From Thermodesulfobacteriota bacterium (GTDB lineage: Bacteria; Desulfobacterota; BSN033; UBA1163), in assembly GCA_049513055.1 (NCBI GenBank), contig JBEKWN010000008.1, forward strand, positions 21,669 to 85,668: DNA of 64,000 bases, given 5' to 3'. A model generated the notes under the pieces. That model saw only the letters and a list, made by a program, of their open reading frames with translations. It was not told the DNA's origin and ran no database searches. Position 1 is the stretch's first letter; the number at the start of each line of letters is the position of its first letter. The translations under genes and the position numbers were made by a program. Below, piece after piece: positions 21,286-64,000 of the stretch.

Positions 21286-22320
21286 CTATTCTATCCTCCC
21301 CACCCAAGAAAATTTAAAGACGAGATCTTCTCCATGCGGTGCCATGTCAATATCTTTAGTCAGATCCTTACCTGCAATATGACACCGCATCCTTTTCTCT
21401 CCCTGGAAGAGAGGGCTTGCCGAAATATCGTAGACTTTTCCCTTATAGGCAATGTAAATAGGTTTTCCTCCTGTGCCATCGAAATGTTGGAGTTCCTCGA
21501 GGGTGAAGGGTTTTAAACTCTCCATCGGGATCTCAGGTTTTACCTCCACCTTCTCCACTGGCTGGATCACTTCTTCTGCCGTTGCTTTGACGATCCCCAA
21601 TTCATCCTCTTGGAGATGGTCTCTTTCGCCCTCGACGATATGGAATCGTTCATCAAACCATTTGAACATCTGATGAGCTGTTTTGAAACCTAACCTTCTT
21701 CCGTTCAGCTCAATGCAGTCACTGATGATATCTACAAAACTGAAACCTTTCCAGAGAAGGGCTTCACGAATACAGGTTTTAAAGTGGTTGAGGTGATAGA
21801 CGGTTGTCCGGGCATAAAAATAGGGAGCTTGTTGGGTGAGGATGCAACCCAATCGAAGGGGCAGATACGTTTCTCCATGAGGTGAGGTGATGGTTTTCGT
21901 TCCCTTGGGTGTGGTCGGTCCGGCTTGGCCACCTGTCAATCCATAGATCTCGTTATCGTTACAGAAGACCGTGATGTTAGGATTTCTCCGGGAGGTGTGA
22001 AGGAGGTGGTTTCCTCCAATGCTTGCCAGATCGCCATCTCCGGAGAGGACAATGACATTGAGGTCTGGACGGACGGTCTTGATGGCCTCAGCCGAAGTCA
22101 GCGCTCGACCATGGGGAGTGTGAATCGCATCTAAGTTCATATATCCGGACATTCTTCCTGAACAACCAATTCCAGAGACAGCAACGGTATTTTGATAGTT
22201 CCAACCGAGTTCTTTGATGGCCATGGCCACATTCTTTAATACAGCACCAATGCCACAACCAGGGCACCAGGTGTGAGGGAACCGCCTCATCTTTAAGAGT
22301 TCTTTATAAGAACGATCCAT
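21286..22320 (-). CDS. 2-oxoacid:ferredoxin oxidoreductase beta (TPP-binding) subunit with a C-terminal cytochrome b5-like domain fusion
   Basis: True start MDRSYKE at 22320 overlaps the alpha stop (TGATG). CPGCG and GDGD TPP motifs. Last about 70 aa FDGTGGKPIYIAYKGKVYDISASPLF...HIAGKDLT are paralogous to the domain at 12859..13070. Confidence 0.85.
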   Translation of the reverse strand: MDRSYKELLKMRRFPHTWCPGCGIGAVLKNVAMAIKELGWNYQNTVAVSGIGCSGRMSGYMNLDAIHTPHGRALTSAEAIKTVRPDLNVIVLSGDGDLASIGGNHLLHTSRRNPNITVFCNDNEIYGLTGGQAGPTTPKGTKTITSPHGETYLPLRLGCILTQQAPYFYARTTVYHLNHFKTCIREALLWKGFSFVDIISDCIELNGRRLGFKTAHQMFKWFDERFHIVEGERDHLQEDELGIVKATAEEVIQPVEKVEVKPEIPMESLKPFTLEELQHFDGTGGKPIYIAYKGKVYDISASPLFQGEKRMRCHIAGKDLTKDIDMAPHGEDLVFKFSWVGRIE

Positions 22321-23366
22321 CACCTTCCCGCTCCCTTCAAACACTCCTCGATCTGACTCTGAATCCATTTGAGCTTGAACCCTCCCCCTAAACAGGGGAC
22401 TTTCATCACCTTTCGGCAAATGGCGCATTCCACCCAACTCGCATACTGCCCATCACTCCCTTCGACCACAATGATGTGTCGATAGGATTGAGTCATCTCC
22501 CTTAATTCCTTCTCCAGGACAGGATAGATGCGGATGGGTCGAAATATGGAGAAACGATCTTTTAAAGATGAGATGATCCTCGAGGTGATTCCAAAGGCGA
22601 TGAGCAGAGTTTCAGAATTCTTACAGGGAAGATATTCGAAAAGAGGATACTTCTCGGCAACACGATCATGACGGTCTTTCAATTCCCAGAACCATCCCCG
22701 ATAGATCTCTGGATCATTGGTTTTCACATTTCCCAACTTATCATGGGCAGTCCCAGTAAAGAGCCGCTGGCCTCTGCCCAAAGGTTCTTTGGAGCGGGGA
22801 ATGACTTCTATGGCTATCCTTTCAAGATCTACCATCTCATAGAGGTGGGAAAGGAAGGCATCGGCAAGGAGGATGACCGGTGAGAGGGAATCTTCTGCTG
22901 CATTGAAGGCTTTGGCAGTTAGGCAAAAACATTCCTCCACCGAATTTGGATAGAAGGCGATAGGATAACAATCGCCTGCACTTCCTGCCTTAATCTGAAG
23001 AAGATCCGATTGAGCGGGCTGAGTGGGCATCCCCGTGGATGGCCCCACCCTCATGGAATTGACGAAGACGCAGGGAGCCTCCACCACATGACCCCATCCC
23101 AAGGCCTCCTGCATCAGAGAAAATCCTGGTCCAGAAGTGGCGGTAAAAGCTTTGGCACCTGCCAAGGAAGCAGAGATGGTGGCGATAGCTGCTGCAATTT
23201 CGTCCTCAGCCTGGAGAAATCGAAATTCTTTGTTTTCCTCTGAATAGAGGGCGGCCTGTTGTAAAATCTCAGAGGTCGGACTGATCGGATAACCAGCAAA
23301 GTAACTGGCGCCGGCCCGAATGGCTCCTTGTAAGATGGCTTCATTTCCGGAAACGAGGCGCTTCAT
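22320..23366 (-). CDS. 2-oxoacid:ferredoxin oxidoreductase alpha subunit
   Basis: GYPISPTSEI and FTATSGPGF motifs typical of Por/Kor A. Confidence 0.85.
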   Translation of the reverse strand: MKRLVSGNEAILQGAIRAGASYFAGYPISPTSEILQQAALYSEENKEFRFLQAEDEIAAAIATISASLAGAKAFTATSGPGFSLMQEALGWGHVVEAPCVFVNSMRVGPSTGMPTQPAQSDLLQIKAGSAGDCYPIAFYPNSVEECFCLTAKAFNAAEDSLSPVILLADAFLSHLYEMVDLERIAIEVIPRSKEPLGRGQRLFTGTAHDKLGNVKTNDPEIYRGWFWELKDRHDRVAEKYPLFEYLPCKNSETLLIAFGITSRIISSLKDRFSIFRPIRIYPVLEKELREMTQSYRHIIVVEGSDGQYASWVECAICRKVMKVPCLGGGFKLKWIQSQIEECLKGAGR

Positions 23367-30129: not shown

Positions 30130-31737
30130 TTGGAGAATTCAGCAATGTCACGCAAAGGATGTAGCATGATTCGTGATAGGAGGCTTTATCCCCTAGTGCT
30201 CGCCATTATTTTTCTCCATTGCGGATGCGCCGTTGGACCTGATTTCACTCGTCCTCCGGTAAATGTTTCGCAAACCTGGCTGGATGCAGGTGATCAGCGT
30301 GTGAAAACAGAACCGGCAGACTACCGCAACTGGTGGCGGGCATTCAATGATGCGGTCCTGGACCGGCTCATTGACAGGGCTTATCGGGAGAACCTATCTC
30401 TTAGGATCGCGGGTGTCCGGGTACTGGAAGCCAGGGCCCAGCTCGGCATCGCCGTTGGAGGACTTTTCCCTCAGATCCAGCAGGCCTTCGGTTTCCTGCA
30501 GTATAACCGGACGAGCGAACGTGCCCCCAACTTTACCTCTTCTCTTTTGAACTTCCGGCAATCCGAGCTTGGGTTTCAAGCCGCCTGGGAACTCGACTTT
30601 TGGGGGAAGTTCAAGCGGGCGATTGAGTCCGCCGATGCCAGTTTACTCGCAACGGTCGCCGACTATGACAACGCGCTAGTGAGTCTTACGGCGGATGTAG
30701 CGAATTCTTACGTCTTGATAAGGACCCTTGAGAAGCGGCTCGATATTGCCCGTCAAAACGTAGAGACGCAGAAGGAGAACCTGAAGATCGCGGACGCCCG
30801 GTTCCGTTACGGCACAACCTCGCAATTGGATGTGGAGCAAGCAAAAACGGTGCTGAACAATACCCTGGCTTCCATCCCTGCCCTCGAAACCCAACTGCGG
30901 CAGGCTAAGAACGCCCTTAGCGTATTGCTGGGTTTGCCGCCGAGCGGTTTGGCGGACATTCTGGAAGGCTCTTTGGAGATTCCTGTCTCACCACCTGAAG
31001 TAGTAGTGGGCATCCCTGCCGACCTCCTTCGACGGCGGTCGGATATTCGGAGTGCAGAACTTCGGGCAGCGGCTCAATGCGCCCAAATCGGTGTGGCCAA
31101 AGCGGATCTCTATCCCGCTTTTTCACTCACAGGAACTTTTGGATTTCTCTCGAGTGATGTTGGGAAATTTAATTTGAGCGACATGTTTCAGTGGAAGAGC
31201 CGTACTGCACAGGCTGGGCCTTCCGTCCAATGGAATATCCTCAATTATGGGCGGATCACGAACAATGTTCGGGTCCAGGATGCCAGGTTCCAGGAGTTGC
31301 TTATCACTTATCAGAACACTGTTCTCACAGCCCAACAGGAGGTGGAGGATAATCTGGTAGCTTTTCTAAGGGCTCAGGAGCGGGCCGAATTTTTGGCCCG
31401 GAGCGTAGCAGCCGCCAAGCGTTCTCTCGATCTCGCAGTCCTGCAGTATCGAGAAGGCACTAAAGATTTTACGACCGTCCTGATCGCCCAGCAAGCTCTT
31501 TTGAATGAGCAGGACAATCTAGCAACCACCCTGGGCAATGTTTCAAGCAGTCTTGTGGGAGTTTACCGGGCCCTGGGTGGCGGTTGGGAGATTAGAGGAG
31601 GAAAGGACTTGGTGCCCTCTGAGATCAAGGGGGAGATGGCAAAGCGCACCAGTTGGGGGAAATTGCTCGCTCCGGCATCATATAATCCGCCAGTCTCCGA
31701 GGAGCCCAAATCCCTGATTCGGCCTCCCGATTGGTAG
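30130..31737 (+). CDS. RND efflux outer-membrane factor (NodT/OprM/TolC family lipoprotein)
   Basis: Lipoprotein-like N-terminus (HCGC). Two OEP repeats. Confidence 0.85.
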   Translation: MENSAMSRKGCSMIRDRRLYPLVLAIIFLHCGCAVGPDFTRPPVNVSQTWLDAGDQRVKTEPADYRNWWRAFNDAVLDRLIDRAYRENLSLRIAGVRVLEARAQLGIAVGGLFPQIQQAFGFLQYNRTSERAPNFTSSLLNFRQSELGFQAAWELDFWGKFKRAIESADASLLATVADYDNALVSLTADVANSYVLIRTLEKRLDIARQNVETQKENLKIADARFRYGTTSQLDVEQAKTVLNNTLASIPALETQLRQAKNALSVLLGLPPSGLADILEGSLEIPVSPPEVVVGIPADLLRRRSDIRSAELRAAAQCAQIGVAKADLYPAFSLTGTFGFLSSDVGKFNLSDMFQWKSRTAQAGPSVQWNILNYGRITNNVRVQDARFQELLITYQNTVLTAQQEVEDNLVAFLRAQERAEFLARSVAAAKRSLDLAVLQYREGTKDFTTVLIAQQALLNEQDNLATTLGNVSSSLVGVYRALGGGWEIRGGKDLVPSEIKGEMAKRTSWGKLLAPASYNPPVSEEPKSLIRPPDW

Positions 31738-31794
31738 CAGCGTAAAAGTCAGGATGGAAGCCTTTAGAGTGACAGAAGATATGGAGATATAGTA

Positions 31795-32997
31795 ATGGTT
31801 TGCCTAAAAAGAGAGACCTATCGCCCAATTCAAGAAGTTTTAGCTTGCGTAATATGTCTGATGCTCCTTGTTTATGTGGTGGCATGCAAAGAAAAAACCT
31901 CCCCCCCACCGCCTCCGCCCACTGTCACGGTCGCTCAACCCGTCCAACAGACAGTGACGGACTACCTCGAACTAACCGGTAATACACAGGCCATCAAGAC
32001 GGTGCAACTGGTCGCCCGGGTCTCGGGTTACCTGGAAAAGGTCTTCTTCCAAGACGGGCAACTGGTAAAAGAGGGTCAATTGCTCTTTCTCATTCAGCAG
32101 AACACGTACCAGGACAACCTGCGGCAAACCGAGGCAGCAATTTTACAGCAGAAGGCCCAGCTGGAGTATGCCGAAATTCAATTGGCCCGTTATTCTAAGT
32201 TGGTTCAGGAGAAGGCGGCTTCTCAAACCGACGTAGACAACTGGCGGTATCAAAGGGATTCCGCCCAGGCCAACCTGCAGGCGGCGGAAGCGCAACATGA
32301 CCTGGCCAAACTCAATTTGGGCTATACGGAGGTCAGATCTCCTTTTGATGGAAGGATCGATCGGAGGCAGAAAGATCCTGGTAACCTGGTAGGGTCAGGT
32401 GAAAATACGGTCCTGGCAGAGATCAACCAGATCAATCCCATCTATGTCTATTTCAACATCAGCGATGCGGATGTAGCCCGCCTGATAGGAGAGGCTCATT
32501 GGACGCCAGGCCAGGCTCGTGCCATAAAATGGCCGGTCTTCGTGGGCCTCCTTACCGAAAAAGAGTATCCTCACAAAGGCCAGCTCGATTTTGCATCCAT
32601 TAGCCTCACCCCCACCACCGGTACCTTGCTGATGCGCGGAGTCTTCTCAAACCCTGACGGGAAGATCCTGCCGGGACTCTATGCCCGGGTGCATTTGCCT
32701 GTTAAGGAAGGACCTGCTTTTCTGGTGCCTCAGGAAGCTATCGGATATGACCAGCGCGGATCATATGTGTTGGTGGTGAACGAAAATAACGTGGTGCAAC
32801 GTTCCAGCGTCAGAATTGGCACACTGGTGGACCATCTGCGTGTCGTCGAAGAAGGTCTAACGGGAAAGGAATGGGTTGTCATAAGGGGCGTGCAGAAAGC
32901 CATTCCCGGACGACCCGTGACCCCGGAAAAGCAGGATTTACGGGCCTCCGGCGGAAGTTTTGCTCAATCCCCAAATCCGAAGAGGGCGTCACCATGA
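31795..32997 (+). CDS. RND efflux periplasmic adaptor (membrane fusion protein, AcrA/MexA family)
   Basis: Signal anchor, coiled-coil hairpin and beta-barrel motifs typical of MFPs. Confidence 0.85.
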   Translation: MVCLKRETYRPIQEVLACVICLMLLVYVVACKEKTSPPPPPPTVTVAQPVQQTVTDYLELTGNTQAIKTVQLVARVSGYLEKVFFQDGQLVKEGQLLFLIQQNTYQDNLRQTEAAILQQKAQLEYAEIQLARYSKLVQEKAASQTDVDNWRYQRDSAQANLQAAEAQHDLAKLNLGYTEVRSPFDGRIDRRQKDPGNLVGSGENTVLAEINQINPIYVYFNISDADVARLIGEAHWTPGQARAIKWPVFVGLLTEKEYPHKGQLDFASISLTPTTGTLLMRGVFSNPDGKILPGLYARVHLPVKEGPAFLVPQEAIGYDQRGSYVLVVNENNVVQRSSVRIGTLVDHLRVVEEGLTGKEWVVIRGVQKAIPGRPVTPEKQDLRASGGSFAQSPNPKRASP

Positions 32998-35900
32998 TTT
33001 CTAAGTTCTTTATCGAGCGGCCGATCCTCGCTAATGTCGTCGCTTTTGTCACCATCGTTATCGGGATAGTAAGCTACTACCACCTGCCGGTAGAGCAGTA
33101 TCCTCCGATTACGCCGCCGACGATTCAGGTAACCACCAGTTATCCGGGAGCGAGTGCCGCAGTCATTGCAGACATAATAGGAGTACCCATCGAACAGGCG
33201 GTCAACGGTGTTGAGCATTCCATTTACATGTCCTCCAAAAGCAGTAGCGACGGCTCCTATACTCTGACCATTACCTTTGACGTGGGGACCGATCTTAATA
33301 CATCTCTTGCCCTCGTCCAAAATCAGGTCAACACCGCACTGGCACAGCTGCCGCCAGCCGTTGCGCAGCAAGGGGTTAATGTAAGGAAAGTTTCCACTAA
33401 CATCTTGCTAATTGTCAGTTTATACTCCGATGACAACCGGTTTGACGAAGCCTTTCTCTCCAACTACGCCATCATCAATATGCAGAATCCACTGGCCCGG
33501 CTGGAAGGCATTGGCCAGGTAAGGGTTTTCGGGGCTGGCCCTTATAGTATGCGAGTCTGGTTGGACCCAAAGAGACTCCAGGATTTCAACCTTACCACCC
33601 AGGATGTCCTGAGCGCCATCGGAGGCCAGAATATTCAGGTCGCGGCAGGAAAACTGGGTGCTCCTCCTGTACCAAGGGATCAGGTCTTTCAGTTTACCAT
33701 TAACAGCCTGGGCCGGCTGTCCGATGCCGAACAGTTTGAAAACGTCATTGTCAAGAGCGGTCGCGGCGTGACTGCCCAGATTGTACGCTTGCGCGATATT
33801 GGGCGCGTTGATCTGGGCCAACAGTATTACTCAAACTTTGCTAATATGCGCGGACTCAGCTCAGCCCAGATCCCCATCTTCGCCCTTCCCGAGGCCAACG
33901 CCATCGCCGTCGCTAACGAAGTTTACAAGGCCGTGAAAGAAATGTCCAAGGATTTCCCCGAAGGTCTGAAGTACACGATCCGCTTCGACACCACCACGTT
34001 CATCCGTCAGGCAGTATCCAAGGTGTATGAAACGCTTTTCGAAGCGGGCATTCTGGTCCTTATCGTGATCATGGTATTTCTGCAGAGTTTCCGGGGAATG
34101 CTTGTTCCCGCCACTACTGTGCCGGTGACCATTATCGGCGGTTTTGCTGCTATGATCGCGCTCGGATTCACCATCAATCTAATGACCTTATTCGCTTTGA
34201 TTCTGACCATTGGCATCGTGGTCGACGACGCCATCGTCATTGTGGAAAACAGCGCCTATTATATCGAGAAGGGTCTATCTCCAAAAGACGCTGCGATTAA
34301 GGCGATGAGCGAGCTGACCGGCCCGATTATGGGCATTACCATGGCACTGGTCTCGGTTTTCCTGCCTGCGGCCTTTTTACCCGGCATCACAGGACAGATC
34401 TTTCGGCAATTCGCCCTGGTGATTGCTTCGACTGCGGTGATCAGCGCCATTAATGCCCTGACCTTAAAACCGGCCCAGTGTGCCCTGTGGCTCCGGCCCA
34501 GGGGGGAGAAGCAGTTAAATTGGTTTTATCGTGGCTTCAATAAAGTTTATCAGGATATGAAGGATCCCTACATGGGGATGGTTCGCTGGATGGTAAAACG
34601 GGCGGGACTTATGGTCGTGTTTTTTCTCGTCATCATCGCCATTTCTGGCTGGCTATTTGCTCGTTGGCCCACTGGCTTTCTTCCTACCGAGGACCAGGGC
34701 TATGGCATTCTCTTCACCCGTCTGCCGGACGGGGCCGCTCAGCCGAGGGCACGGGAGGTATCAGAGAAAATCGACGATATCCTCAAGAAAACCCCCGGTG
34801 TCGCCAACTGGATTACGATCGGTGGTTATTCCTTCCTGGACGCGGCCAATGTCTCCACGATTTCAAGTACTTTTGTCACTTACAAAGACTGGAGTGAACG
34901 CGGCTCCGCCCTAAGTCAGGATAAGATCATCGCCCGTCTTAACCGCGACCTTTCTGCCATCCAGGAAGCGGTGGCGTTTGTGGTGATTCCACCGCCCATC
35001 AGAGGGTTAGGCCAGACGGGGGGCTTTCAGATGATGGTGCAAGACCGGAAAGACATCGGTCCCCAGGAACTCCAGAGGGCCACAAATGACCTTATCCAGG
35101 CGGGCAACTCCCAGAAGAGTTTACAGAACCTCACCACCACCTTTAACATCAACAGCCCCCAACTCTACCTGGACATTGATAGGACGAAGGCTCAGTCCTT
35201 TCAAGTTCCGCTGAATAACGTGTTTGAGACGCTCCAGGCCTACCTGGGCTCCTCCTTCGTCAATCTCTTCAACAAGTTCAATCAGGTGTACCAGGTCTAC
35301 ATCCAGGCAAACGACAGCTACCGGGTGAAACCAGAGGACATTAAGAACCTATATACCCGAAATGCCAATGGGGAAATGGTACCCCTCGGCAGCGTTGTAG
35401 AGGTCAGACGTTCCCAGGGCTCCGAATTGATCACTCGCTACAACCTTTATCCGGCAGCCGCCATCTTTGGATCCGTTGCTCCAGGATTCACCTCGGGACA
35501 GGCCCTCAAACTGATGGAAGAACTGGGGACGAATGTTCTGCCGCGGGGAGCCGGCTATGAGTGGACCGCTACGAGCTATCAGGAAAAGAAGGTTGGCCAT
35601 CAGGCATACTTCATTTACGCCCTCTCCGTCACCTTGGTCTTCATGGTGCTGGCCGCACTGTATGAGAGCTGGACATCTCCAGCGGCTGTCATTCTGGCAG
35701 TACCCATGGCATTGGTCGGGGTTCTCCTCGGTCTCATCATTCGAGGACTTGACAACAATCTCTACACACAGATAGGCCTGGTGCTGATGATCGCCCTGGC
35801 CAGTAAGAACGCCATCCTCATTGTTGAGTTTGCACGGGACCTGCAACGGGAAGGCATGTCTGTGACCGAGGCGGCCATCGAGGCAACGAGCCGGCGCTTT

Positions 35901-36170
35901 CGCCCCATCGTGATGACTTCCTTTGCCTTCATCCTGGGAGTGGCTCCCCTGCTATTCGCAAGGGGCGCTGGCGCTGCCAGCCAGCAGGCGATCGGCACAG
36001 TCGTCTTTGGGGGCATGATCGCGTCTACATTACTTGCCATCCCATTTGTGCCTGTTTTCTACGTGATCACGCAACGCCTGACCGAACGACGAAGAAAAGG
36101 CAAAACCTCTTCACTGCCAACCGGAGATACTGAGTACCCAAGGCGGGAAGACAAAGGAATGAAGCGGTGA
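32994..36170 (+). CDS. RND efflux permease (AcrB/MexB-like, HAE1 family)
   Basis: Start MISKFFIERPILANVVAF at 32994 (ATGA overlap with the MFP stop). About 1058 aa, 12 TM. Confidence 0.9.
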   Translation: MISKFFIERPILANVVAFVTIVIGIVSYYHLPVEQYPPITPPTIQVTTSYPGASAAVIADIIGVPIEQAVNGVEHSIYMSSKSSSDGSYTLTITFDVGTDLNTSLALVQNQVNTALAQLPPAVAQQGVNVRKVSTNILLIVSLYSDDNRFDEAFLSNYAIINMQNPLARLEGIGQVRVFGAGPYSMRVWLDPKRLQDFNLTTQDVLSAIGGQNIQVAAGKLGAPPVPRDQVFQFTINSLGRLSDAEQFENVIVKSGRGVTAQIVRLRDIGRVDLGQQYYSNFANMRGLSSAQIPIFALPEANAIAVANEVYKAVKEMSKDFPEGLKYTIRFDTTTFIRQAVSKVYETLFEAGILVLIVIMVFLQSFRGMLVPATTVPVTIIGGFAAMIALGFTINLMTLFALILTIGIVVDDAIVIVENSAYYIEKGLSPKDAAIKAMSELTGPIMGITMALVSVFLPAAFLPGITGQIFRQFALVIASTAVISAINALTLKPAQCALWLRPRGEKQLNWFYRGFNKVYQDMKDPYMGMVRWMVKRAGLMVVFFLVIIAISGWLFARWPTGFLPTEDQGYGILFTRLPDGAAQPRAREVSEKIDDILKKTPGVANWITIGGYSFLDAANVSTISSTFVTYKDWSERGSALSQDKIIARLNRDLSAIQEAVAFVVIPPPIRGLGQTGGFQMMVQDRKDIGPQELQRATNDLIQAGNSQKSLQNLTTTFNINSPQLYLDIDRTKAQSFQVPLNNVFETLQAYLGSSFVNLFNKFNQVYQVYIQANDSYRVKPEDIKNLYTRNANGEMVPLGSVVEVRRSQGSELITRYNLYPAAAIFGSVAPGFTSGQALKLMEELGTNVLPRGAGYEWTATSYQEKKVGHQAYFIYALSVTLVFMVLAALYESWTSPAAVILAVPMALVGVLLGLIIRGLDNNLYTQIGLVLMIALASKNAILIVEFARDLQREGMSVTEAAIEATSRRFRPIVMTSFAFILGVAPLLFARGAGAASQQAIGTVVFGGMIASTLLAIPFVPVFYVITQRLTERRRKGKTSSLPTGDTEYPRREDKGMKR

Positions 36171-41472: not shown

Positions 41473-43110
<1,638 letters not shown>

Positions 43111-43127
43111 TGAACGCCTCTCACTCG

Positions 43128-43155
43128 CTCCCTCTCCCCGCGGGGGAGAGGGGAA
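43128..43155 (+). terminator. Near-perfect GC palindrome CCTCTCCCCGCGGGGGAGAGG just after the groEL stop
   Basis: Seen directly. No immediate U-tract, so it may act as an attenuator before the next gene. Confidence 0.35.
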
Positions 43156-43202
43156 GGGTGAGGGGATTGAAAATTTTCTTCACTAGATTCCTTGGTTCTA
43201 CA

Positions 43203-44924
43203 ATGGTTGATTCCCTACCCATGACTTTACCCGAAGATCCTAAGGAAGCCCAAAAAGTCTTTAACTCCCTTCCTATTAAAAATCAATTGGATATTGTTTT
43301 AAAGGTTCGAGGAAAAGAACGACTCCATTACCTATTCCTTTCAGAACATTCAGAAGAGTTGGTTCAACAACTTCCAGAACTGGAGGTCTTTTTAACCGTC
43401 AAGGAGATTGGGGAAAGGGATAGCCTTGAGTTAATCTCCCTCACCACACCCGAGCAGTTCCTGTATCTCCTCGACCTCGATTTCTGGAAAAGGGATCAGT
43501 TGGACCCAGAGAAGATACTTAACTGGATGGAGATTCTCCTTGAATCGGGGGAAAAGAAAGTCACCCAATTTATCCAATCTACGGATCCTGAATTCATCGC
43601 CCTTCTTCTAAAAAAATTCCTTCATGTCACAACGCTGGAGAGGGAACACTTGGAAGGGATGGACAGAATTCCTCTTTTTACTTTAGATCAATTTTACTTC
43701 GTTGATTTTAAGGGAAAGAAGACCGGAGAGGTTTTCGAACCTTTTTTAAGAATCCTTTACCGCATCAAGGGGGAGGGTTATCGAAAATTGATGGAGTCTC
43801 TTGTCTGTGAAATCGAACCGGAACTTGAGGAAGCAGGATACCGTTTAAGGAATAGCCGCTTGAGTGACTATGGATTCCCTGATTTTGAAGAGTCTTTAGA
43901 AATTTATCATTTTGTCAACCCTGAATCTCTAATTCTTGAAGAAAGACCTCTGAAGGTCAGGGCTCAGGAAGAAATAGAGAAAGGAAGTTCAATCTTCTAT
44001 CTCACCCACCAAAATGAAGGTCCTTTTTTCTCCTCTATCCTCTCTAAGATTGATGATCCTCATGAGCAGGATCGATTGAAACAAGAAATAACAGCTCTCT
44101 GTAATAAAGCAATCGTGGCAGAGGCCATAGACCTTTCCAATATTGCCGCCATGGAGAGGGTTGTAAAAAAAGTCTACCATACTCTAAATCTTGGCCTTCA
44201 GTATTTAAGCAAGGGAGATGAAATAAAAGCCTTTGAGATCCTTCAATCTCTTCCCATACAAAGACTATTTCAATGCGGTGTAGGCACCACACTACTTCTG
44301 AGAAAAAAGGCAGAATCCATTTTAAAAGGGACATGGTTTTTAGATGACCAGGAGAATCTCGTTTTTTTAGACCCTCCTCATTTCGAAAAATTCGAAGGGA
44401 TTTTGAGGAAAAGGCCTGCTTTTTATCGAGATTGGATTTATGAGGACTTCAAGAACCTTCAGGATTTAAAAGAGGCGGATGCCTTTTTGGAATTCATCGA
44501 AGTGATTATCGATTTTTTGGGAAGGGGATTGAATGTTTCCCCTCGTTACCTAAAGGAACTGGATTTGAGCGGTTTCCCTGAAGAGTGGCGGGAAATAACT
44601 CTCTCTACTATCTTTTTCACCTCTTTAGCAAACCAGATTCTCAGAGGGACTTTTCAATTTGAAGCCATTAAGCAGGGTCAGGTAAAAGATTTTCTCTACA
44701 GGGTTTTTGAAAGCGATGCCCAAGGGAAGGGGGTTATAAAGATGGAGGTCAAAAACGGATTAAGAGACTGGTACTATTCCATCGAAGGGGAGGAAATTAA
44801 GCGGCAACATCTTCTCGCTTTTCAGGATTTCTGTTTGGACCTATTTGAAGAGGAATATGGGAAGATACCTCCAGAAGAGAAGGTGGACCCCCGATTTGTT
44901 AAAGGACTTCTTATCCGAAAATAA
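43203..44924 (+). CDS. Hypothetical 573 aa soluble protein downstream of groESL, with no confident family
   Basis: Long ORF with a start at MVDSLPMTLPED after the groEL hairpin. No recognized catalytic motif. Confidence 0.5.
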   Translation: MVDSLPMTLPEDPKEAQKVFNSLPIKNQLDIVLKVRGKERLHYLFLSEHSEELVQQLPELEVFLTVKEIGERDSLELISLTTPEQFLYLLDLDFWKRDQLDPEKILNWMEILLESGEKKVTQFIQSTDPEFIALLLKKFLHVTTLEREHLEGMDRIPLFTLDQFYFVDFKGKKTGEVFEPFLRILYRIKGEGYRKLMESLVCEIEPELEEAGYRLRNSRLSDYGFPDFEESLEIYHFVNPESLILEERPLKVRAQEEIEKGSSIFYLTHQNEGPFFSSILSKIDDPHEQDRLKQEITALCNKAIVAEAIDLSNIAAMERVVKKVYHTLNLGLQYLSKGDEIKAFEILQSLPIQRLFQCGVGTTLLLRKKAESILKGTWFLDDQENLVFLDPPHFEKFEGILRKRPAFYRDWIYEDFKNLQDLKEADAFLEFIEVIIDFLGRGLNVSPRYLKELDLSGFPEEWREITLSTIFFTSLANQILRGTFQFEAIKQGQVKDFLYRVFESDAQGKGVIKMEVKNGLRDWYYSIEGEEIKRQHLLAFQDFCLDLFEEEYGKIPPEEKVDPRFVKGLLIRK

Positions 44925-56906: not shown

Positions 56907-57251
56907 TTAAGTATCGTACTTATCAAAATTATAACCCGCTTTCCTGTAATCCTCCAAGGCACGGTTCTTCAAATCCTCTCGCTTCGTTTTTTCTGCTTCC
57001 TTATCGGCTAATTCAGCCGCATGGCTCCATTTCCCCTCTTTTTCGTAATCCCTGATTTTCCGATCTGTTTCTGTGAGCGGACGTCCTTTGATCACTACGG
57101 TAGGAGCGAAGAGAACTCGGGAAATAGGATTTTTACATTGGGGGCAGAAGGTTAAGACAGATTCAGTCATCCTCTGGATTATCTCAAAACCTCGCCTGCA
57201 GTAATTACAACTTTTTTCTGAATCAATAGCTTTGTATGCGTACGTTGGCAT
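56907..57251 (-). CDS. FmdB-family zinc-ribbon regulatory protein
   Basis: MPTYAYKA...C..C...CPQC, the FmdB N-terminal signature. Confidence 0.6.
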   Translation of the reverse strand: MPTYAYKAIDSEKSCNYCRRGFEIIQRMTESVLTFCPQCKNPISRVLFAPTVVIKGRPLTETDRKIRDYEKEGKWSHAAELADKEAEKTKREDLKNRALEDYRKAGYNFDKYDT

Positions 57252-57282
57252 TATTAAAACCGTGTCTCGTGTCCGGAAAAGG

Positions 57283-58107
57283 ATGATTCCCTACCCAAAC
57301 CTTTATATTTACGAGATTTCTGGAGCGATTTCAGATTCAAAGAATTTTTTCAAGGAAGACTTCATCGGCTGTTGGAATGAAGGGGAGGCCTCCTTCCTTT
57401 TCTTTTCTCAACCCCACGATGAGGAGGTGGAGTCATTTGTCGAAAAGAAGTGATACCCTCTTGTCTCAAGAAATGTCCTTGACTACAAGGCCTGGCAGGC
57501 CGGTGAAGAATTGAAACCTTTTAAAGTGGGTAATCTTGTCATCTCTCCCCCTTGGGAAAATGGAAGAGTCGAAGAAGGGGAGGTCTTGGTTCATTTAGAT
57601 CCCTGTGTTGTCTTTGGTACAGGTTATCACCCAACAACTCGAACCTGCCTTAAAGCCCTTTGGGAGATTTATCAAAAAGAGAGGCCGAAAAAAGTTTTGG
57701 ACCTTGGAACAGGCTCAGGGATCCTTGCCCTGGCTGCTGCAAAATGGGGAGCTGAAAAGGTGCTTGCCATTGACTGTAATGAGCTGGCTGTGGAGACGGC
57801 GTTACGTAATGTATCGTACAATGGAGAATCTCAACGGATTGAGGTGAGGATGGGAAAAGCGGAGGGTTTTATTGAAGAGGAAGCAGATTTAGTTTGTGCC
57901 AATATCCATCTTCAGGTCATTGAGTCTCTATTAAAGAAAAGGGCCTTCTTCAAGAAAAGATGGTTTATCCTTTCAGGGATCTTTGAAAAAGATGCGAAAA
58001 AGATTGAGAGGCGATTGATCCAAAGATCCGTTGAAATCGTTCAGAGGGTACAAGAGAAAAACTGGTTGACCTTGGTTGGTTTAAACAGGAAGGGAAAGTT
58101 GAATTAA
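57283..58107 (+). pseudogene. prmA: Ribosomal protein L11 methyltransferase PrmA interrupted by an in-frame TGA at 57451..57453
   Basis: Track ORFs 57232..57453 and 57511..58107 are in the same frame, separated only by TGA. The joined sequence matches PrmA (GCWNEGEASFLFF ... LDYKAWQAGEELKPFKVGNLVISPPWE ... DPCVVFGTGYHPTT ... LDLGTGSGILA). Confidence 0.65.
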
Positions 58108-58260
58108 AATGCTATTGACTTCGATTTTTCATTGTGTTAAAAAAATCACATTTTATCCTCACTTAAATCCCAAAAATTTAAATTTTCTTTAAATTTTGAC
58201 AAAATAACCCTCATTCTCATCGTAAGAGGGAGGAGTAATTTTTAAAATTTTGGGGGAACT

Positions 58261-60231
58261 ATGAAATCGAAGTTCAAAAGATTATATCTTATTTGTCTCA
58301 TCATCTCTGTCTCGCTCTTTTTAGGTTCAGGAGTGTTGCGGGCAGCAACACCCGCTCCTGAAAAAGAAGGTGCCAAGTCCGCAGAGGTGACCAAACCTTC
58401 TGAACCTGTGAAGAAAGGGGAAAAATTTGTCGTCAAGGGTCGAGAATATTGCTATGAGTGTATTGACAACTCTGAATGTATGGGTTGCCATAGAAAAATC
58501 AGCGAGAGGAGGTTTGCCCAGTCCGTTCATGGAGCCAACTCCTGCAACAGTTGCCACTGGGATATCACGGATGTCAAGGCCCATGCCAAAGCGAGAGGGG
58601 CAAGCATTTATGCAGAACCCGTCACCTGTCATCGATGTCATAAGAAGGAAGGGGCAGAACATTATGCAAGCGCCCATTTCATCAATGACATTCAATGCAA
58701 AGACTGCCATAAAGACATCCACGAGATGACTCCGTGGAAAGGGGATAAAGTCCGAGTCATCCAAAAATGTACGACCTGCCACTCCGATGATGGTTATGCT
58801 GAGAGCGTCCACGGCAAAGCCGTCCTCGATGGAAATCCAGATTCAGCCACCTGCAGCGATTGCCACGGCCTCCATAAGATTCCCTTATTAAAAGGGGACG
58901 AACCCAAGACAGTGGCATTCCGGAAGGAGTTTCATACAGAAGTTTGCCAGAAATGTCATGCAGACAAGGAGATGATGGAGAGAAACAAGGTTTTTCTCAT
59001 CGCCACTCAGACCTATTACGAAAGTTATCATGGAAAGGTTGAGCATCTGGGCTACCCAAAATTAGTAGCGGGTTGTGCTGACTGCCACGGGTTTCACAAC
59101 ATTCTGCCTCAAGATAATCCAAAGTCTCTCATCTCTGATAAAAGGTTGGTAGAGACCTGCGGCAAATGCCACCCAGGAGCCAATGCCAACTTCGTCCAGT
59201 TCATCACCCATGCCACCCATACCGATCCAGAAAGAGAGCCAGTGCTTTATGGAACCTTCGTCCTGATGACCGGCCTCCTCGTTTCTGTCTTTGGAGTATT
59301 CTGGTTCCATGCCTTCCTCTGGTGGCGAAAGGACTTCTGGGAAAAGAGGGAGTTGAGGGCCAAAGGGATCTTTTTCCCGCAACACGTGAGACCCGATGAA
59401 GCAGGGCACATCTATCGTCGATTTAGCTTATTCGACATTGTGCTCCACTTTACGATGATGGTGACCTTTATCTGCCTTGTCCTGACCGGACTGCCATTGA
59501 AATTTTCCCATGCCCCTTGGGCCAGTGGTTTGATGCACTTTTTAGGAGGAGCTAGGATGGCTGGCTTGATCCATCGCATTTGTGCAGGCATTACTTTTGC
59601 TTATTTCGGAACGACCATGGCCTACATCTTCTATTTCCTCTTCTTTAAAAAGATCCATGGGAATCCCAATCCCTTGCAGAGACTTTTCGGCCCGGATTCA
59701 CTCTGCCCACGATGGAAAGATGTTCAAAATATCGTCGGGATGATCCAATGGTTCTTTAACAAAGGGCCGAAACCCCAGTTTGACCGATGGACCTATTGGG
59801 AGAAATTCGATTTTCTTGCTGTCTTCTGGGGAATGTTCGCCATCGGGCTTTCGGGATTGATGCTCTGGCTTCCAGAATTCTTCACCATCTTTTTACCCGG
59901 ATGGATTCTCAACATCGCCACGATCGTCCACTCGGATGAAGCGCTCTTGGCTTCCGGCTTCATCTTCACGGTTCATTTCTTCAACACCCATTTTCGACCT
60001 TCGAAGTTCCCGATTGATACAGTGATCTTCACAGGAAGGTTCCCGAAATATGAACTGGTGGAGGAACGGCTGGAACAGTATAATCGTCTGCTGGCGGAGA
60101 AGAAGTTGGAGACCTATCGGGATAAATACCCCAGCGTGGCGGCAGACCTCTTCTCAACGATTATGGGATTTGCCATGCTGGCCATTGGGCTTTTCTGCGT
60201 CTTCCTGATTGCGTGGGAATTCTTGGTATAA
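58261..60231 (+). CDS. CbcL-like quinol-oxidizing cytochrome: N-terminal periplasmic nonaheme c-type domain fused to a C-terminal dihaem cytochrome b membrane domain (FdnI/HydC-like)
   Basis: Nine CxxCH motifs in residues 60-350. A 5 TM His-rich C-terminal half follows ([26 protein letters not shown]). Confidence 0.8.
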
Positions 60232-60338
60232 AAATGTCTTTGCATCGTTGAGTCATAGAGTCAAAATTACGTCTTTGGGTCATGGCGTCTTTTATTTTTA
60301 AATTAAGACCCACGACTCTAGGACACTAAGATGTTTTT

Positions 60339-61922
60339 TTAGTTGGAAATTTTGCAGCCGATCTTTTCGAGATAAGCCATATAGTTAAAGGTGGGGCTTT
60401 GATCTTTGGTATGGCAGTTTCGGCAGATACCAAGGGTCACTTTCCTCTCTAAACTTCCCCTTCCCGGATGTCCCTTCCCTTCTCCGTGACAGGCTTCACA
60501 CTGCACCCCTTGAAGGTAAAAAGGGATTTCCATCACGGTTGCATACTCTCCAATCTTCCCATAGCCTGTGGAGTGGCACAACAGGCACTCCTCTTGAGCA
60601 TATTTGGGGGAAGCAGCGATGGTCTGGGAGGCCTTGGCATGTTTGGTCTTGAGCCAATTTCTGTAGTTCACTTCGTGGCATTTTTTGCAGGAGATCGCTC
60701 CAGCAAAAGGACTCGTTTTAGGAATTCGGGCGATCATCTCTTTCTCCGGTAAGTCCTTTCCAACTTCGACTGCCACTTTTGGTTTGTATAGCTTTGCCGA
60801 CTCAGCACGATATGTCTCCAGTTCCTTGATAATTTTTGGATCATCTGCCACAGCGAGTTGAACAGGGATGGCGATATGTTTGTAAAAATTTTTGTCTTCA
60901 GAGGCAAGAAGCACCTTCTCCAATTCTTTCTGTTTGGACTCCAAGATTCTCAGCTCCTTCAGCTTCATCTCATCCTGTTTTCCTGATTTTGCCATCTCCA
61001 TTTTAATTTGTGTTGAATGGGAGATCAGTCTTTCCAATTTCTTCTCTATCTCTTCCCGTTCACCAGAAATCATAAATTTAATAGGTCTTTTGGTATCCAC
61101 CAGAGAGTAATCCACTCGGCCCAAATATCCTCCTCTGGGCTCCAATCGATAAATAGCGGTTCCATCCACTCTTTCCATAACCACCCTTTTGGATTCGCCC
61201 CCTCCTCCTAAGATCAGATCGATGTCGCGATTTTCCCTGGCCAGCTTCTTATCTTTTGATTCGCCCAATTGAGAGAGGCAGGCGATTAAATCGCAATATT
61301 CCCGGAGGCTTTTGGTAAGGGTTTTTGATGTTGAAAAAGGGTCGAGAATAGATAATCCGGGATCCCTCTCCTGAAGGGTTGAGTTGAAAGTATCATCTAA
61401 GAGTCCAAATATCCCAATCTTTAGCCCTGCGATTTCTTTGATCACATAAGGTTTGAAGACACCCTTTCCAGTTTTTTTGTCCACGAGGTTGGCTGAGACA
61501 AAGGAGAACTTCGCCTTTTGGCTCACTTCAGAGAGGAATTTAAGCCCCATCATCAAATCTTTTTCGCCCACATTGACCGCATCGTATCCCATTTCGTTAT
61601 AGGATTGGACGAGGAGGTCAACACGAAGAAGGGCATCCCTGCGCTTGGTTTCTGTTTGAGGAGGTTTTCGAAAAAGAAGATTTCCGGTGTCGAGGAGAAG
61701 GATCTTTCTGCCTTCTTTCTTTATCTGATTGATGAGCGTCGATTTCTTGGCGACACCGCCAAGAGGGTTTCTGAATCACCCACAGGGCTCGACCTCACCC
61801 ATTACATCATTGGTATAAAGGATGCTGAATTGATTTTTGGGGTTGGCCTGAACAAGAGGGTTTTGGGTTAGCATTAGAATTAAAGTTGAAATGAAAAGAA
61901 AATATACTTTTCTCAATTTCAA
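60339..61922 (-). pseudogene. Secreted calcineurin-like metallophosphatase (5'-nucleotidase/UshA-like N domain) fused to a C-terminal tetraheme cytochrome c. The N-terminal region is disrupted by an in-frame TGA (61777..61779) and a frameshift near 61650..61675.
   Basis: Track ORF 60339..61592 starts mid-domain (MGYDAVNVGEKDL). Upstream, manual translation gives a TTG start with a GGAAGGAG RBS, a signal peptide, ILYTNDVMGEVEPCG-TGA-FRNPLGGVAKKSTLINQIKKEGRKILLLDTGNLLF, then a frame switch into KPPQTETKRRDALLRVDLLVQSYNEMGYDAV. C-terminal CKKCH, CLLCH, CEACH, CRNCH. Confidence 0.6.
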
Positions 61923-62025
61923 AACAAACTCCTTCCTTAAGAGATTGTATTTATTTAACCAATGGTTTTTCCGAAAGCAAGTCCATGAACGAATCTTTTC
62001 GGAGGCTTTTAGAGGGGAAACAGGG

Positions 62026-64000
62026 ATGACCCTTGAAATAATTTTGAAACTTTGTAAGAATAAGCCGTCGGGGGGAATCCGGGGGTTCCTTATGGAAACG
62101 TTAAAAGATTTTTATGATTTGGTAAAAACCTTTTGGATTGATGTTTTCAATGCTTTCAGGAGGGGAACTGAAACTCACCTTAAGGCCATAAAGATTTTCC
62201 TTGTTTTTTGCATCATTGTTTTTGTTATCCTCCTCGGAGTTCTCCTAAAATTTACAGAGTCCTCCACTTTCTGCGGCCTCTGTCACCAGATGAATGCCTA
62301 TATGGAGTCGTGGAGGACTTCCAGCCACAAGCATGTGGTATGCACAAAATGTCACTATGAACCTGGATTTATCAATCATTTGAGAGGGAAGTGGGTGGAT
62401 GGCCAGGTATCGCTGGCCTATTTTCTTTCCGGTAAAAGGCCAAACACGCCTCATGCACAGATCAGCGATGCAAGCTGCCTTCAGAAGGGTTGCCATCAGA
62501 CCGATGATCTGAAGGGAAATATGATTTACAAGAATGTGGCCTTCTCACACGGAAAACATTTAGGTGAGTTGAGAAGGGGGATGAATCTCCGTTGCACAAG
62601 CTGCCACGCTCAACTTGTTCAAGGATTGCATCTCACCGTTCATGAAATCAACTGTTTCATCTGTCACTATTACAAGGCCGGTCCGAAAGGAGAGGAAGAG
62701 TGCATTTCATGTGCCATCGGAGGGTGTACCTCCTGCCATGTCGAGCCTAAAGGGGATATCAAGGTCAAAGGTTGGAGCTTCAATCACAGAAAGTATATTG
62801 CAAGAGGGGTCGCCTGTGAGAAGTGCCATCTCAGTGTGGTTCAGGGAGATGGCCATGTCCCTGAAGGAAAGTGTCTGGAATGTCATAATGAACCTGTCCT
62901 CCTGAGTACGAAATATACCTCTCAATTTATGCATAAGAAACATGTCACCGACCACAAGATCGAATGCTCAAGTTGCCACACTCCTCTCCGCCATGAGATT
63001 GGGCAGATCCCCACCAGCACCCACGTTCCATCCAATTGTGATAAGTGTCATAACAAGGAGATGCATTTAGGACCCAGAGATTTTTACAGGGGGAGCGGAG
63101 GGATTGGCGTTCCAGACTCCCCCAGCCTCATGTTTACAACCAATGTCGACTGTATCGCCTGTCATCGAAGGGCCGAAGAAAGCAAGGCTGCACTCCACAC
63201 GACGAGATATGCGGAAAGGGTGATCGGCGAAGCCTGTGTAGACTGCCACGGGGAGGGATTCGATGATACCTTGAAGCAATGGAAAGCCCTCCTTTCCAAA
63301 TCAGAGAATGAGACGAATCAGAGGATTTTCAATGTTCAGAAAGTATTATATGAGTTTGAAAAGGCCAATGGAAGCACGGCCACCTTCAAAAAAGCCCAAA
63401 ACCTACTCAATGAAGGCCGCCATAATTACAGCTTTGTCCTTTTGGGGCAAGGCGTTCACAATGTTGAATATGCTTTCCAACTTCTCAATGCAGCGAACAA
63501 TAAGACAGAGCAGGTTTTAGCAATCATCGATAAAGGTTACAAACCTCAGGAATTTAGAACCCGCATGACCTGTACCACGCTGTGCCATGTTGGGATAGAG
63601 AAGCGGACCGTTCCTTTTAATGACATCAAATTTTCCCATGAAACCCACATTGCAGGCAATGGACAGAAGTGCTCGGATTGCCATTCTTCTCGTGAAAATC
63701 ACGGCAAAACGTTAATGAAAAATTGTGCACAATGCCATCACGGGAAGGAAATTAAGAAAGTGAAATGCGAGGATTGTCATGCCTCCATCAAAAAGCTCAT
63801 TCAAGGGAAAGGAGGCATTGGCGTTCAAGAGAGACCGAGTAATAAGTTGGATGTGGTCGAATGCATTGATTGCCATCGGGGTGTATTGGCGAAAAAGAAA
63901 GACACTTTTGATGCGATTAAGAAACGTTGCATTGAATGTCATGACCAGAGTTATGGGGAGATGGTGGTCCGATGGAAAGCGACCTCTGAAGATTTGTTGA
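62026..64000 (+). CDS. Large membrane-anchored multiheme cytochrome c (NapC/NirT/NrfH-like N-terminal quinol-dehydrogenase module plus a long multiheme extension, at least 16 CxxCH). Partial: it runs off the window end.
   Basis: Manual translation shows an open frame from ATG 62026 to position 64000 with no stop. It is absent from the ORF track for that reason. N-terminal TM helix, then CGLCH...CTKCH...CTSCH NrfH-like spacing, then many further CxxCH. Confidence 0.8.
   Translation, partial: MTLEIILKLCKNKPSGGIRGFLMETLKDFYDLVKTFWIDVFNAFRRGTETHLKAIKIFLVFCIIVFVILLGVLLKFTESSTFCGLCHQMNAYMESWRTSSHKHVVCTKCHYEPGFINHLRGKWVDGQVSLAYFLSGKRPNTPHAQISDASCLQKGCHQTDDLKGNMIYKNVAFSHGKHLGELRRGMNLRCTSCHAQLVQGLHLTVHEINCFICHYYKAGPKGEEECISCAIGGCTSCHVEPKGDIKVKGWSFNHRKYIARGVACEKCHLSVVQGDGHVPEGKCLECHNEPVLLSTKYTSQFMHKKHVTDHKIECSSCHTPLRHEIGQIPTSTHVPSNCDKCHNKEMHLGPRDFYRGSGGIGVPDSPSLMFTTNVDCIACHRRAEESKAALHTTRYAERVIGEACVDCHGEGFDDTLKQWKALLSKSENETNQRIFNVQKVLYEFEKANGSTATFKKAQNLLNEGRHNYSFVLLGQGVHNVEYAFQLLNAANNKTEQVLAIIDKGYKPQEFRTRMTCTTLCHVGIEKRTVPFNDIKFSHETHIAGNGQKCSDCHSSRENHGKTLMKNCAQCHHGKEIKKVKCEDCHASIKKLIQGKGGIGVQERPSNKLDVVECIDCHRGVLAKKKDTFDAIKKRCIECHDQSYGEMVVRWKATSEDLL

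Follow-up and report, generated by a model that had tools for sequence, protein, structure and literature searches.

A CbcL-type cytochrome gene paired with a gene for a UshA-like tetraheme selenoprotein in an uncultured Syntrophaceae-type bacterium: a candidate periplasmic electron-transfer block

Three adjoining multiheme cytochrome genes

A 64-kb stretch of genomic DNA from an uncultured Syntrophaceae-type Thermodesulfobacteriota bacterium (hereafter, the window) carries, in its last part (58261-64000), a cluster of three genes predicted to encode a CbcL-type quinol-linked cytochrome (gene 1), a UshA-like tetraheme protein with an in-frame selenocysteine (Sec) codon (gene 2), and an NrfH/NapC-like anchored multiheme cytochrome (gene 3; Table 1). 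Here, we describe these genes and their relatives in public genomes and metagenomes, and weigh the proposal that gene 1 and gene 2 together form a quinol-linked route from the inner membrane to a redox site in the periplasm. The translations of the three genes contain 9 + 4 + 16 = 29 CxxCH motifs, exactly the number that the initial annotation of this sequence had given as a minimum. Six-frame translation of the entire window yields 40 CxxCH motifs, 30 of them in 58261-64000 and 29 of these in the three genes, and five of the remaining 10 belong to one more cytochrome gene (19655-20596). The heme-motif counts in this region are real and far above background and chance; with the atypical motifs of gene 3 included, 31 hemes are predicted over the three proteins. 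A public contig (L001) matches the window at all 5740 nt of 58261-64000 (0 mismatches), and the exact gene 1 protein is present on at least 23 public contigs. Gene 2 lies on the opposite strand, where it converges with gene 1 and points away from gene 3, and the cluster is therefore not one operon. Accordingly, the three-gene module proposed in the initial annotation holds with respect to adjacency and heme content, and requires amendment for gene 2, which is on the minus strand and contains a TGA codon that had gone unmentioned.

Table 1. Coordinates of the three cytochrome genes and of the features of gene 2 within the 64-kb window
Feature	Position	Strand	Details
Gene 1, CbcL-like inner-membrane cytochrome	58261..60231	+	656 aa; 9 CxxCH; PF01292
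Gene 2, UshA-like tetraheme selenoprotein (predicted)	60339..61922	-	527 aa; 4 CxxCH; NF041198
Tetraheme c554-like domain of gene 2	60342..60698	-	CKKCH, CLLCH, CEACH, CRNCH; PF13435
SECIS-like hairpin	61745..61764	-	(U)CUUGGCG-GUGU-CGCCAAG(A)
In-frame TGA, predicted selenocysteine codon	61776..61778	-	...GEVEPCG-U-FRNPLGG...; conserved TGA, aligned Cys
Gene 3, NrfH/NapC-like anchored multiheme cytochrome	62092..64000 (window end; ends 251 nt on)	+	719 aa

Judged by its predicted architecture, gene 1 is securely assigned to the CbcL type of quinol-linked cytochromes. The protein consists of a signal or anchor segment (residues 5-29), a region with the nine CxxCH motifs (residues 73-304), and a cytochrome b domain (residues 328-651). 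The protein matches c7/c3-type heme families of Pfam, and its C-terminal half matches PF01292 (prokaryotic cytochrome b561/Ni-hydrogenase cytochrome b, FdnI-like) at 32.9 bits, above the gathering score of 30.1; the 28 bits obtained with the FdnI equivalog TIGR01583, for which the cutoff is 116, are the level expected of a distant relative. A Kyte-Doolittle scan delineates four clear transmembrane (TM) segments (residues 328-346, 390-408, 519-545, and 633-651), and two further probable segments were judged by eye (approximately 438-460 and 547-570). Five TM histidines (396, 438, 557, 572, and 577) are invariant across 13 homologues with 61-82% identity, as are ten non-motif, distal histidines of the c-heme half. 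More than 4000 homologues, about 650 aa long, are retrieved at E ≤ 1e-10, which makes this a very large family. Geobacter CbcL is defined by nine CX2CH motifs, six TM helices, and a HydC/FdnI-like dihaem b domain, is required by Geobacter for low-potential extracellular acceptors, and has homologues in Syntrophus; orthology was drawn at 57.6% or more identity to GSU0274 within the Geobacter/Desulfuromonas/Syntrophus group (PMC6295460). The nine CX2CH motifs, the PF01292 match, and the invariant TM histidines of gene 1 thus agree with the CbcL-type nine-heme/dihaem-b fusion recognized in the initial annotation, and the four clear and two probable TM segments suggest about six helices.

Gene 3 most probably starts at ATG 62092, where the alignments of its homologues begin (alternatives, 62026 and 61892). 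As had been noted at the outset, it runs off the window; extension along identical contigs places its end 251 nt beyond position 64000 and adds no heme motif. Within the window, in the frame of 61402, there are 16 CxxCH motifs, one CX4CH (CLQKGCH), and one CX3CH (CTTLCH), 18 motifs altogether, and CxxCK is not found in the protein. Hydropathy points to a single TM helix (residues 33-51), and the match to PF03264 (NapC/NirT/NrfH) is weak but significant (26.9 bits; gathering score, 24.1), in line with the initial description of an NrfH/NapC-like N-terminus with a heme-dense extension. The NrfH model TIGR03153 scores 51.4 bits, under its cutoff of 134.2, and no curated equivalog-level family reaches its cutoff on this protein. 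An alignment with OcwA (PDB 6I5B; E = 2.8e-13) covers residues 244-474 of gene 3 and extends over the NrfA-like pentaheme half and the helical bundle of OcwA, including the GGIGVPDSPS...C..CH and GVHNxEY motifs. The C-terminal third of gene 3 duplicates this module (27% identity, E = 9e-25), each copy ending in a GVHNxEY helix. From these alignments, the designation of gene 3 as a predicted NrfH-anchored, 18-heme cytochrome with two OcwA/NrfA-like modules appears secure.

Reading frame, selenocysteine codon, and fold of gene 2

The open reading frame (ORF) called for gene 2 comprises only 417 aa (60339..61592), and its frame continues upstream across a TGA codon (61778-61776) to a TTG start at 61922, with the ribosome-binding site AAGGAAGGAG 6 nt upstream. 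The N-terminus of the full frame, MKLRKVYFLFISTLILMLTQNPLVQA, is signal-peptide-like, and the codon lies in the context ...ILYTNDVMGEVEPCG-TGA-FRNPLGGVAKK.... Residues of gene 2 are numbered below from TTG 61916 (525 aa). The window and 16 species-representative genomes of uncultured Syntrophaceae/Thermodesulfobacteriota (69-87% identity) all have TGA at this codon; in these genomes the protein sequence is conserved on either side, while adjacent synonymous sites vary. The representatives were searched with the relative P0021 as the query, and the scan of metagenome loci, which recovered relatives at 24-83% identity, was built on an alignment of eight sequences; a 33-sequence alignment of diverse members contained no stretch conserved enough for such a scan, and a profile search with the gene 2 alignment mostly recovered close relatives again. 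Over all loci, spanning 24-87% protein identity, the codon is TGA in each of 65 distinct Sec-type sequences, never TAA or TAG, and TGT or TGC in 24 Cys-type sequences. In 32 Cys-type relatives, the Sec column is an invariant Cys; in Cys-type representatives the motif reads EPCGC. Apart from the four CxxCH motifs, the positions invariant among the 33 diverse members are C45, the Sec/Cys column, two glycines, and two further histidines (H426 and H483), the only invariant non-motif histidines for four hemes; C45 and U47 are the sole invariant side chains of the N-terminal domain.

The full-length frame matches the NCBIfam model NF041198, "UshA-like (seleno)protein" (UshA_like_PCGU), at 491.1 bits (cutoff 275, E = 3.5e-147) over model positions 2-518 of 519, and the search for relatives recovered approximately 340 clusters at 50% identity (E ≤ 1e-30). 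More than 100 database homologues with 75-90% identity are annotated as proteins of 461, 471, or 417 aa that start just past the UGA site. The family was listed as "COG0737 UshA-like, CxU" in the 2008 ocean selenoproteome survey (PMC2398784) and has since reappeared in reviews from 2022 and 2026 (PMC9312934, PMC13188914), the latter of which describes Thermodesulfobacteriota as selenoprotein-rich; known from computational prediction alone, it has been given no function, structure, or partner in these surveys. The suggestion in the initial annotation that part of the module has no described counterpart was thus mistaken as regards the family membership of gene 2, and correct as regards its function, which neither NF041198 nor the surveys describe. 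Based on codon conservation and profile matches, we consider it secure that gene 2 is a predicted UGA-encoded periplasmic selenoprotein of the NF041198 family, and the component identities of the cluster, together with the Sec codon, are very probably correct.

A hairpin follows the codon at a distance resembling that of the bacterial selenocysteine insertion sequence (SECIS) and is accordingly termed SECIS-like. Its 7-bp core stem begins 12 nt past the UGA, or 11 nt if an optional eighth U-A pair is counted, and closes an apical GUGU loop, the first base of which is G. RNAalifold on 17 sequences supports seven pairs, with one break and with all 13 variant cells representing GC<->GU exchanges; at the three four-fold-degenerate third positions within the stem, the base is C or T in 50 of 51 cells, and either can pair with G. 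The single-sequence fold of the hairpin region has a free energy of -22.2 kcal/mol (z = -2.5), and the mean minimum free energy (MFE) of the 45 nt downstream of the codon is -15.3 kcal/mol in Sec-type versus -12.0 kcal/mol in Cys-type sequences (p = 0.002). Other clades have different hairpin sequences in the same place. Family-wide, RNAalifold on 20 diverse Sec-type sequences yields four weak pairs only, because the hairpin register shifts between clades; the support adduced here is therefore the within-clade hairpin and the MFE contrast.

The gene 2 product begins with a signal peptide, followed by a degenerate 5'-nucleotidase-type domain that bears the P-C-G-U motif; a helical hairpin then leads to the c554-like tetraheme domain. 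In the AlphaFold2 (AF2) model of the full-length relative P0021, residues ~64-390 have a predicted local distance difference test score (pLDDT) of 80-95, and residues 294-349 form the helical hairpin, followed by the heme domain. Foldseek comparison of the N-terminal domain of this model retrieves Escherichia coli UshA (1ush/1oid) with E ~1e-19 and a probability of 1.0; phmmer connects gene 2 to PDB 2z1a (E = 1e-11), and hidden Markov models of UshA and SoxB score it alike (68 and 66 bits). The metal-ligand motifs are altered throughout: DxH is replaced by DVM (NDVMG), GD by GN (TGN), GNHE by GEKD, H by SQLG, and GHxH by GGGE (GGGGE). A canonical Bacteroidales relative in locus L022 retains all ligand motifs (NDCHS, AGD, GNHE). 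The Pfam Metallophos family does not match gene 2 at E ≤ 0.01, and the 5'-nucleotidase C-terminal substrate-binding domain is absent from its Pfam matches. The heme domain resembles cytochrome c554 (PDB 1bvb; E = 5.8e-7), and in the c554/OcwA scaffold heme 2 is the open, active-site heme (PMC6703420). Hence, the secreted metallophosphatase-tetraheme fusion of the initial annotation stands as to the 5'-nucleotidase fold and the tetraheme domain, and not as to the canonical metal ligands, which are lost from what is predicted to be a selenoprotein. Judging from these motifs, gene 2 appears to have kept the fold without being a phosphatase and is not expected to have phosphoesterase activity.

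Gene neighborhoods and the proposed electron path

Wherever a related locus has sufficient flanking sequence, gene 1 lies next to gene 2 and converges with it, down to 46-48% gene 2 identity; gene 3 and rex accompany the two genes in most related loci. Upstream of gene 1, there are genes for a PrmA-like methyltransferase, a Zn-ribbon protein, an ABC-F protein, and a transporter, all unrelated to the cluster; downstream of gene 3, rex (NF003993, 271 bits versus 217) is followed by genes for a 2-hydroxyacid dehydrogenase, an aminotransferase, and others, and an isocitrate-type dehydrogenase is also encoded within 10 kb of the cluster. In place of gene 3, three sister loci (L006, 1-6700; L028, 1-7900; L033, 1-4200) have genes for a DUF1684 protein, a hypothetical protein, an iron-sulfur (FeS) protein, NrfD, a Psr/Phs/Dms-like molybdoenzyme, and a six-heme NrfH-like cytochrome. 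Frameshifts in the molybdoenzyme and NrfD genes of L006 possibly reflect long-read assembly errors. In locus L024, where the gene 2 relative P0428 occupies 8521-10107 and belongs to a lineage with S-G-R at the Cys-Gly-Sec site, the CbcL-like gene is absent, and DsrO/DsrP-like and Ttr/Phs/Arr-like genes are found instead; this locus also holds two gene 3 paralogues. In some distant genomes, two paralogues of the gene 2 family lie close together, as two Sec-type copies in adjacent tandem (L080, 8001-10331; TGA at 8088 and 9510) and as two Cys-type copies about 3.7 kb apart with two ORFs between them (L065, 1-6462). A family-wide operon partner for gene 2 was considered and rejected: clustering the neighborhoods of 37 diverse loci revealed no recurrent neighbor outside the close clade. 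In a scan of 57900-62300, sites resembling promoters and terminators were fewer than in shuffled sequence.

The best explanation of these observations, to which we assign a probability of about one half, is a conserved, quinol-linked electron-transfer block that leads from the inner membrane to the periplasm and ends in a heme-wired Cys-Gly-Sec site. Gene 1 would act as a menaquinol:cytochrome c oxidoreductase; electron exchange with the quinone pool would take place at its dihaem b domain, and the nine c-hemes would carry the electrons to the periplasm. Gene 2 would be the redox-enzyme end of the path, receiving electrons from gene 1 and relaying them via its four hemes to the Cys/Sec pair, which would reduce a small periplasmic substrate, most likely a chalcogen compound (polysulfide or S0, a disulfide or trisulfide, or selenite). 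Gene 3 could provide a second, independent quinol-linked branch in parallel, next to which, in most relatives, lies rex, the gene for an NADH-sensing repressor. The direction of electron flow, the feeding of gene 2 by gene 1, the catalytic Cys/Sec pair, and the substrate class are what we infer from the genes, and this electron path to a catalytic Cys/Sec pair is put forward at somewhat less than even odds. The enzyme idea for gene 2 is proposed by analogy with CxU/CxxU redox selenoproteins and with an unrelated multiheme selenoenzyme, MccSep, which acts as a periplasmic polysulfide reductase (PMC13510729); given this precedent, the hypothesis is plausible and experimentally approachable. The sulfur-type genes near gene 2 in the sister loci L006, L028, L033, and L024, in which Psr/Phs/Ttr-like, FeS, and NrfD or DsrP-like genes replace one of the partners, are consistent with it. 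A bolder version, which we regard as doubtful, would make the gene 2 family a second, independent class of heme-wired selenoenzymes, built from a dead phosphoesterase and serving as a terminal chalcogen reductase fed by a CbcL-type oxidase; in it, the c554-type domain might present its open heme 2 to the Cys-Gly-Sec site.

Several observations weigh against the electron-transfer block ending in gene 2. Genes 1 and 2 are convergent and not co-transcribed. Distant family members (24-33% identity) are solitary, with almost no cytochromes nearby, so that the CbcL link is specific to one clade, and the molybdoenzyme matches in the sister loci are all far below the curated cutoffs. Up to three mismatches, the Rex operator TTGTGAAnnnnTTCACAA has three matches against 4.6 expected, none of them intergenic, so that regulation of the cluster by the adjacent rex gene is unsupported. 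In the AF2 model, pLDDT falls below 50 both in the CGU loop and in the heme domain, making the model unreliable for the Sec-to-heme geometry. Within the 64-kb window, there are no selA/selB/selD-type Sec-insertion genes and no tRNA-Sec (ARAGORN and Rfam at gathering thresholds, neither of which detects any RNA gene). Furthermore, Sec is replaced by Arg in two lineages, C-E-R in P0021 (E-P-C-E-R-F) and S-G-R in P0428-P0430 of locus L024 (D-P-S-G-R-F). The S-G-R proteins keep the rest of the sequence and all four heme motifs, and P0021 keeps the rest with one heme motif degraded (CEARH for CEACH). The Cys/Sec pair is therefore not indispensable for retention of the gene; a change from TGA to CGA or AGA takes a single step.

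The three cytochromes might instead constitute a periplasmic or extracellular conduit, largely as envisaged in the initial annotation, that serves direct interspecies transfer or respiration with metals, minerals, humics, or electrodes; gene 2 would then be a mere heme carrier. The requirement of Geobacter for CbcL with low-potential extracellular acceptors and the Syntrophus homologues (PMC6295460) fit extracellular electron transfer (EET), as do the homology of the gene 3 modules to OcwA, the terminal extracellular reductase of Thermincola (PMC6703420), the 31 predicted hemes in three proteins, and a host that apparently belongs to a peat or sediment syntroph lineage. The expected surroundings, by contrast, are missing: the 10 kb on the upstream side of gene 1 and the 10 kb on its downstream side contain no genes for an outer-membrane beta-barrel, a porin-cytochrome, an outer-membrane cytochrome, or a decaheme partner, and all three proteins are predicted to be anchored in the inner membrane or periplasmic. 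Moreover, a simple carrier would have no need for the invariant Cys-x-Sec/Cys in an enzyme-like domain, and the gene 2 family is mostly solitary, far from EET genes. A conduit of this kind finds no support in the gene context, and we regard it as possible but doubtful. Improbable, in our view, is a role in which the Cys-Gly-Sec motif ligates a metal in the remodeled phosphoesterase pocket, or a heme (His/Cys(Sec)), making gene 2 a metal-centre enzyme, or a sensor or carrier with an unusual heme of low potential. The acidic residues of the old site are largely kept (D76 and D120 are invariant in the eight-member alignment), the family consensus includes LDxGD and GExD, many Cys-type relatives retain the H and GH ligand positions, just two invariant distal histidines are available to four hemes, and Cys-ligated hemes are known in MccSep and TsdA (PMC13510729). 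In the clade studied here, however, most of the ligand positions are now occupied by non-ligands (M, N, K, Q, G), the S-G-R and C-E-R lineages still keep the gene, and the CGU loop is modeled at low confidence only.

Two further explanations are effectively excluded. An ordinary Nrf/Hao/Mcc/Dsr-type reductase operon, with a separate catalytic subunit served by the NrfH-like protein, could draw on the weak TIGR03153 match of gene 3 (51 bits), on its NrfA-family-like modules, and on the DsrO/DsrP-like genes of one sister locus. Such an operon is very improbable, given that no nrfA, hao, mccA, or dsr catalytic genes are found in the window or in the 10 kb following gene 1, nor a nap gene nearby, that CxxCK is lacking, and that the NrfH score is far under the 134-bit cutoff; the initial annotation had named a catalytic partner just downstream as the finding that would overturn its reading, and the next gene is rex, with the 2-hydroxyacid dehydrogenase and aminotransferase genes after it. 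The least credible explanation treats the TGA as a true stop, so that gene 2 would be truncated or decaying, or would consist of a short N-terminal peptide and a separate cytochrome of 417-461 aa. All public gene callers annotate the downstream part alone, and no Sec machinery is visible in the window. Against this, the codon is TGA without exception in the 65 distinct sequences while its synonymous neighbors vary, it is aligned with an invariant Cys, the hairpin is conserved, and NCBI curates the family as selenoproteins; in addition, the signal peptide and the first beta-strand are encoded upstream of the TGA and the remainder of the same domain downstream.

Elsewhere in the window, the PrmA-like methyltransferase gene upstream of gene 1 (57232-58107, plus strand) appears to be interrupted by an in-frame TGA (57451-57453): a 198-aa ORF (57511-58107) matches profile positions 106-293 only, and a 73-aa ORF lies upstream in the same frame. 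There is no Cys near this TGA, and the gene could thus be a pseudogene, a split gene, or a case of read-through; a scan of the window for further selenoprotein genes returned spurious candidates and this interrupted gene only. The additional cytochrome gene (19655-20596, minus strand) encodes a pentaheme c554-like protein of 313 aa with five CxxCH motifs, and its neighbors (18178-18969 and 21286-23366) are a rubrerythrin-like gene and two 2-oxoacid:ferredoxin oxidoreductase subunit genes, one of which includes a fused cytochrome b5-like domain. At 12850-13542 (plus strand), a DUF2231 membrane domain is joined to a heme-binding domain of the cytochrome b5-like type. A GC-rich island (30130-36170, plus strand; 0.53-0.54 versus ~0.44 elsewhere) corresponds to an OEP/HlyD/AcrB-type resistance-nodulation-division efflux operon, not to rRNA. 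Finally, a Cpn60/TCP-1-family chaperonin (544 aa), of a type unusual for a bacterium, is followed directly by a DUF6178 gene (604 aa) at 41476-44924 (plus strand).

Significance and relation to known systems

Each of the three proteins belongs to a known or catalogued family, so that nothing at this locus is categorically new. What appear to be undescribed are the pairing of a CbcL-type cytochrome with a UshA-like selenoprotein, the fusion of an NrfH-like anchor with duplicated OcwA-like modules in gene 3, and the function of NF041198. In the literature searched, there was no link between CbcL and a selenoprotein and no paper describing a nucleotidase-tetraheme fusion, which one follow-up preprint does not mention either. 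Nearly all interpretations of CbcL-type proteins place them at the start of extracellular electron transfer; at this locus, gene 1 has a single constant partner among relatives down to about 46% identity, namely a periplasmic multiheme protein predicted to contain Sec, which is a candidate electron acceptor in non-Geobacter anaerobes. If gene 2 were a chalcogen reductase fed by the CbcL-type oxidase, the CbcL family would have a respiratory role apart from extracellular electron transfer, and a function would be assigned to a family of selenoproteins that has gone without one since 2008. UshA-like CxU selenoproteins are widespread, and the pairing at this locus offers a biochemical handle on them. 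The Sec-type public gene calls examined are all truncated at the UGA, so that censuses of heme proteins and selenoproteomes in peat and sediment metagenomes mis-describe gene 2. With the identification of MccSep in 2026 as the long-sought sulfur reductase of Geobacter (PMC13510729), a second family of multiheme selenoproteins is timely.

Gene 1 shares the domain order, the heme count, and the cytochrome b half of the family of inner-membrane quinol oxidases/quinone reductases that includes CbcL (GSU0274) of Geobacter sulfurreducens, MtrH, and MtoC, and its 656 aa fall among the lengths of 416-1034 aa in that family (PMC6295460). The difference lies in the gene neighbors, which are a selenoprotein gene and an NrfH-fusion cytochrome gene in the present case and Mtr/Mto conduit or c-type cytochrome genes for the other members. 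Gene 3 resembles NrfH, NapC, and CymA in its single N-terminal TM helix and first heme motifs, and OcwA of Thermincola potens in its modules, which can be aligned with the NrfA-like pentaheme half and include the GVHNxEY helix. Unlike all of these, it combines the anchor and the reductase-like modules in one chain and doubles the OcwA-like module; it also has atypical CX4CH and CX3CH motifs and lacks CxxCK.

For gene 2, the closest parallel in working principle is MccSep (ExtKL, GSU2937-2936), and the likeness, itself drawn from predicted features, goes no further than that principle. Both are periplasmic multiheme cytochromes with a single UGA-encoded Sec (predicted in the case of gene 2) that are split or cut short in annotation, both have Sec-type and Cys-type relatives, and both occur in Desulfobacterota. 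MccSep, in contrast to gene 2, has five hemes and a Sec near its C-terminus (...DGUP...), lacks a UshA-like domain, and is not homologous (PMC13510729); membership of gene 2 in the MccSep/ExtKL family was rejected, as NF040886 gives no match and the protein has four CxxCH motifs, with Sec in the N-terminal UshA-like domain. In fold, the nearest known proteins are E. coli UshA and related 5'-nucleotidases and SoxB, which share the N-terminal fold and the periplasmic location with gene 2. From these enzymes, gene 2 differs in the replacement of the ligand motifs, in the insertion of the Cys-Gly-Sec motif past motif I, and in the presence of a helical hairpin and a tetraheme domain in place of the nucleotide-binding C-terminal domain.

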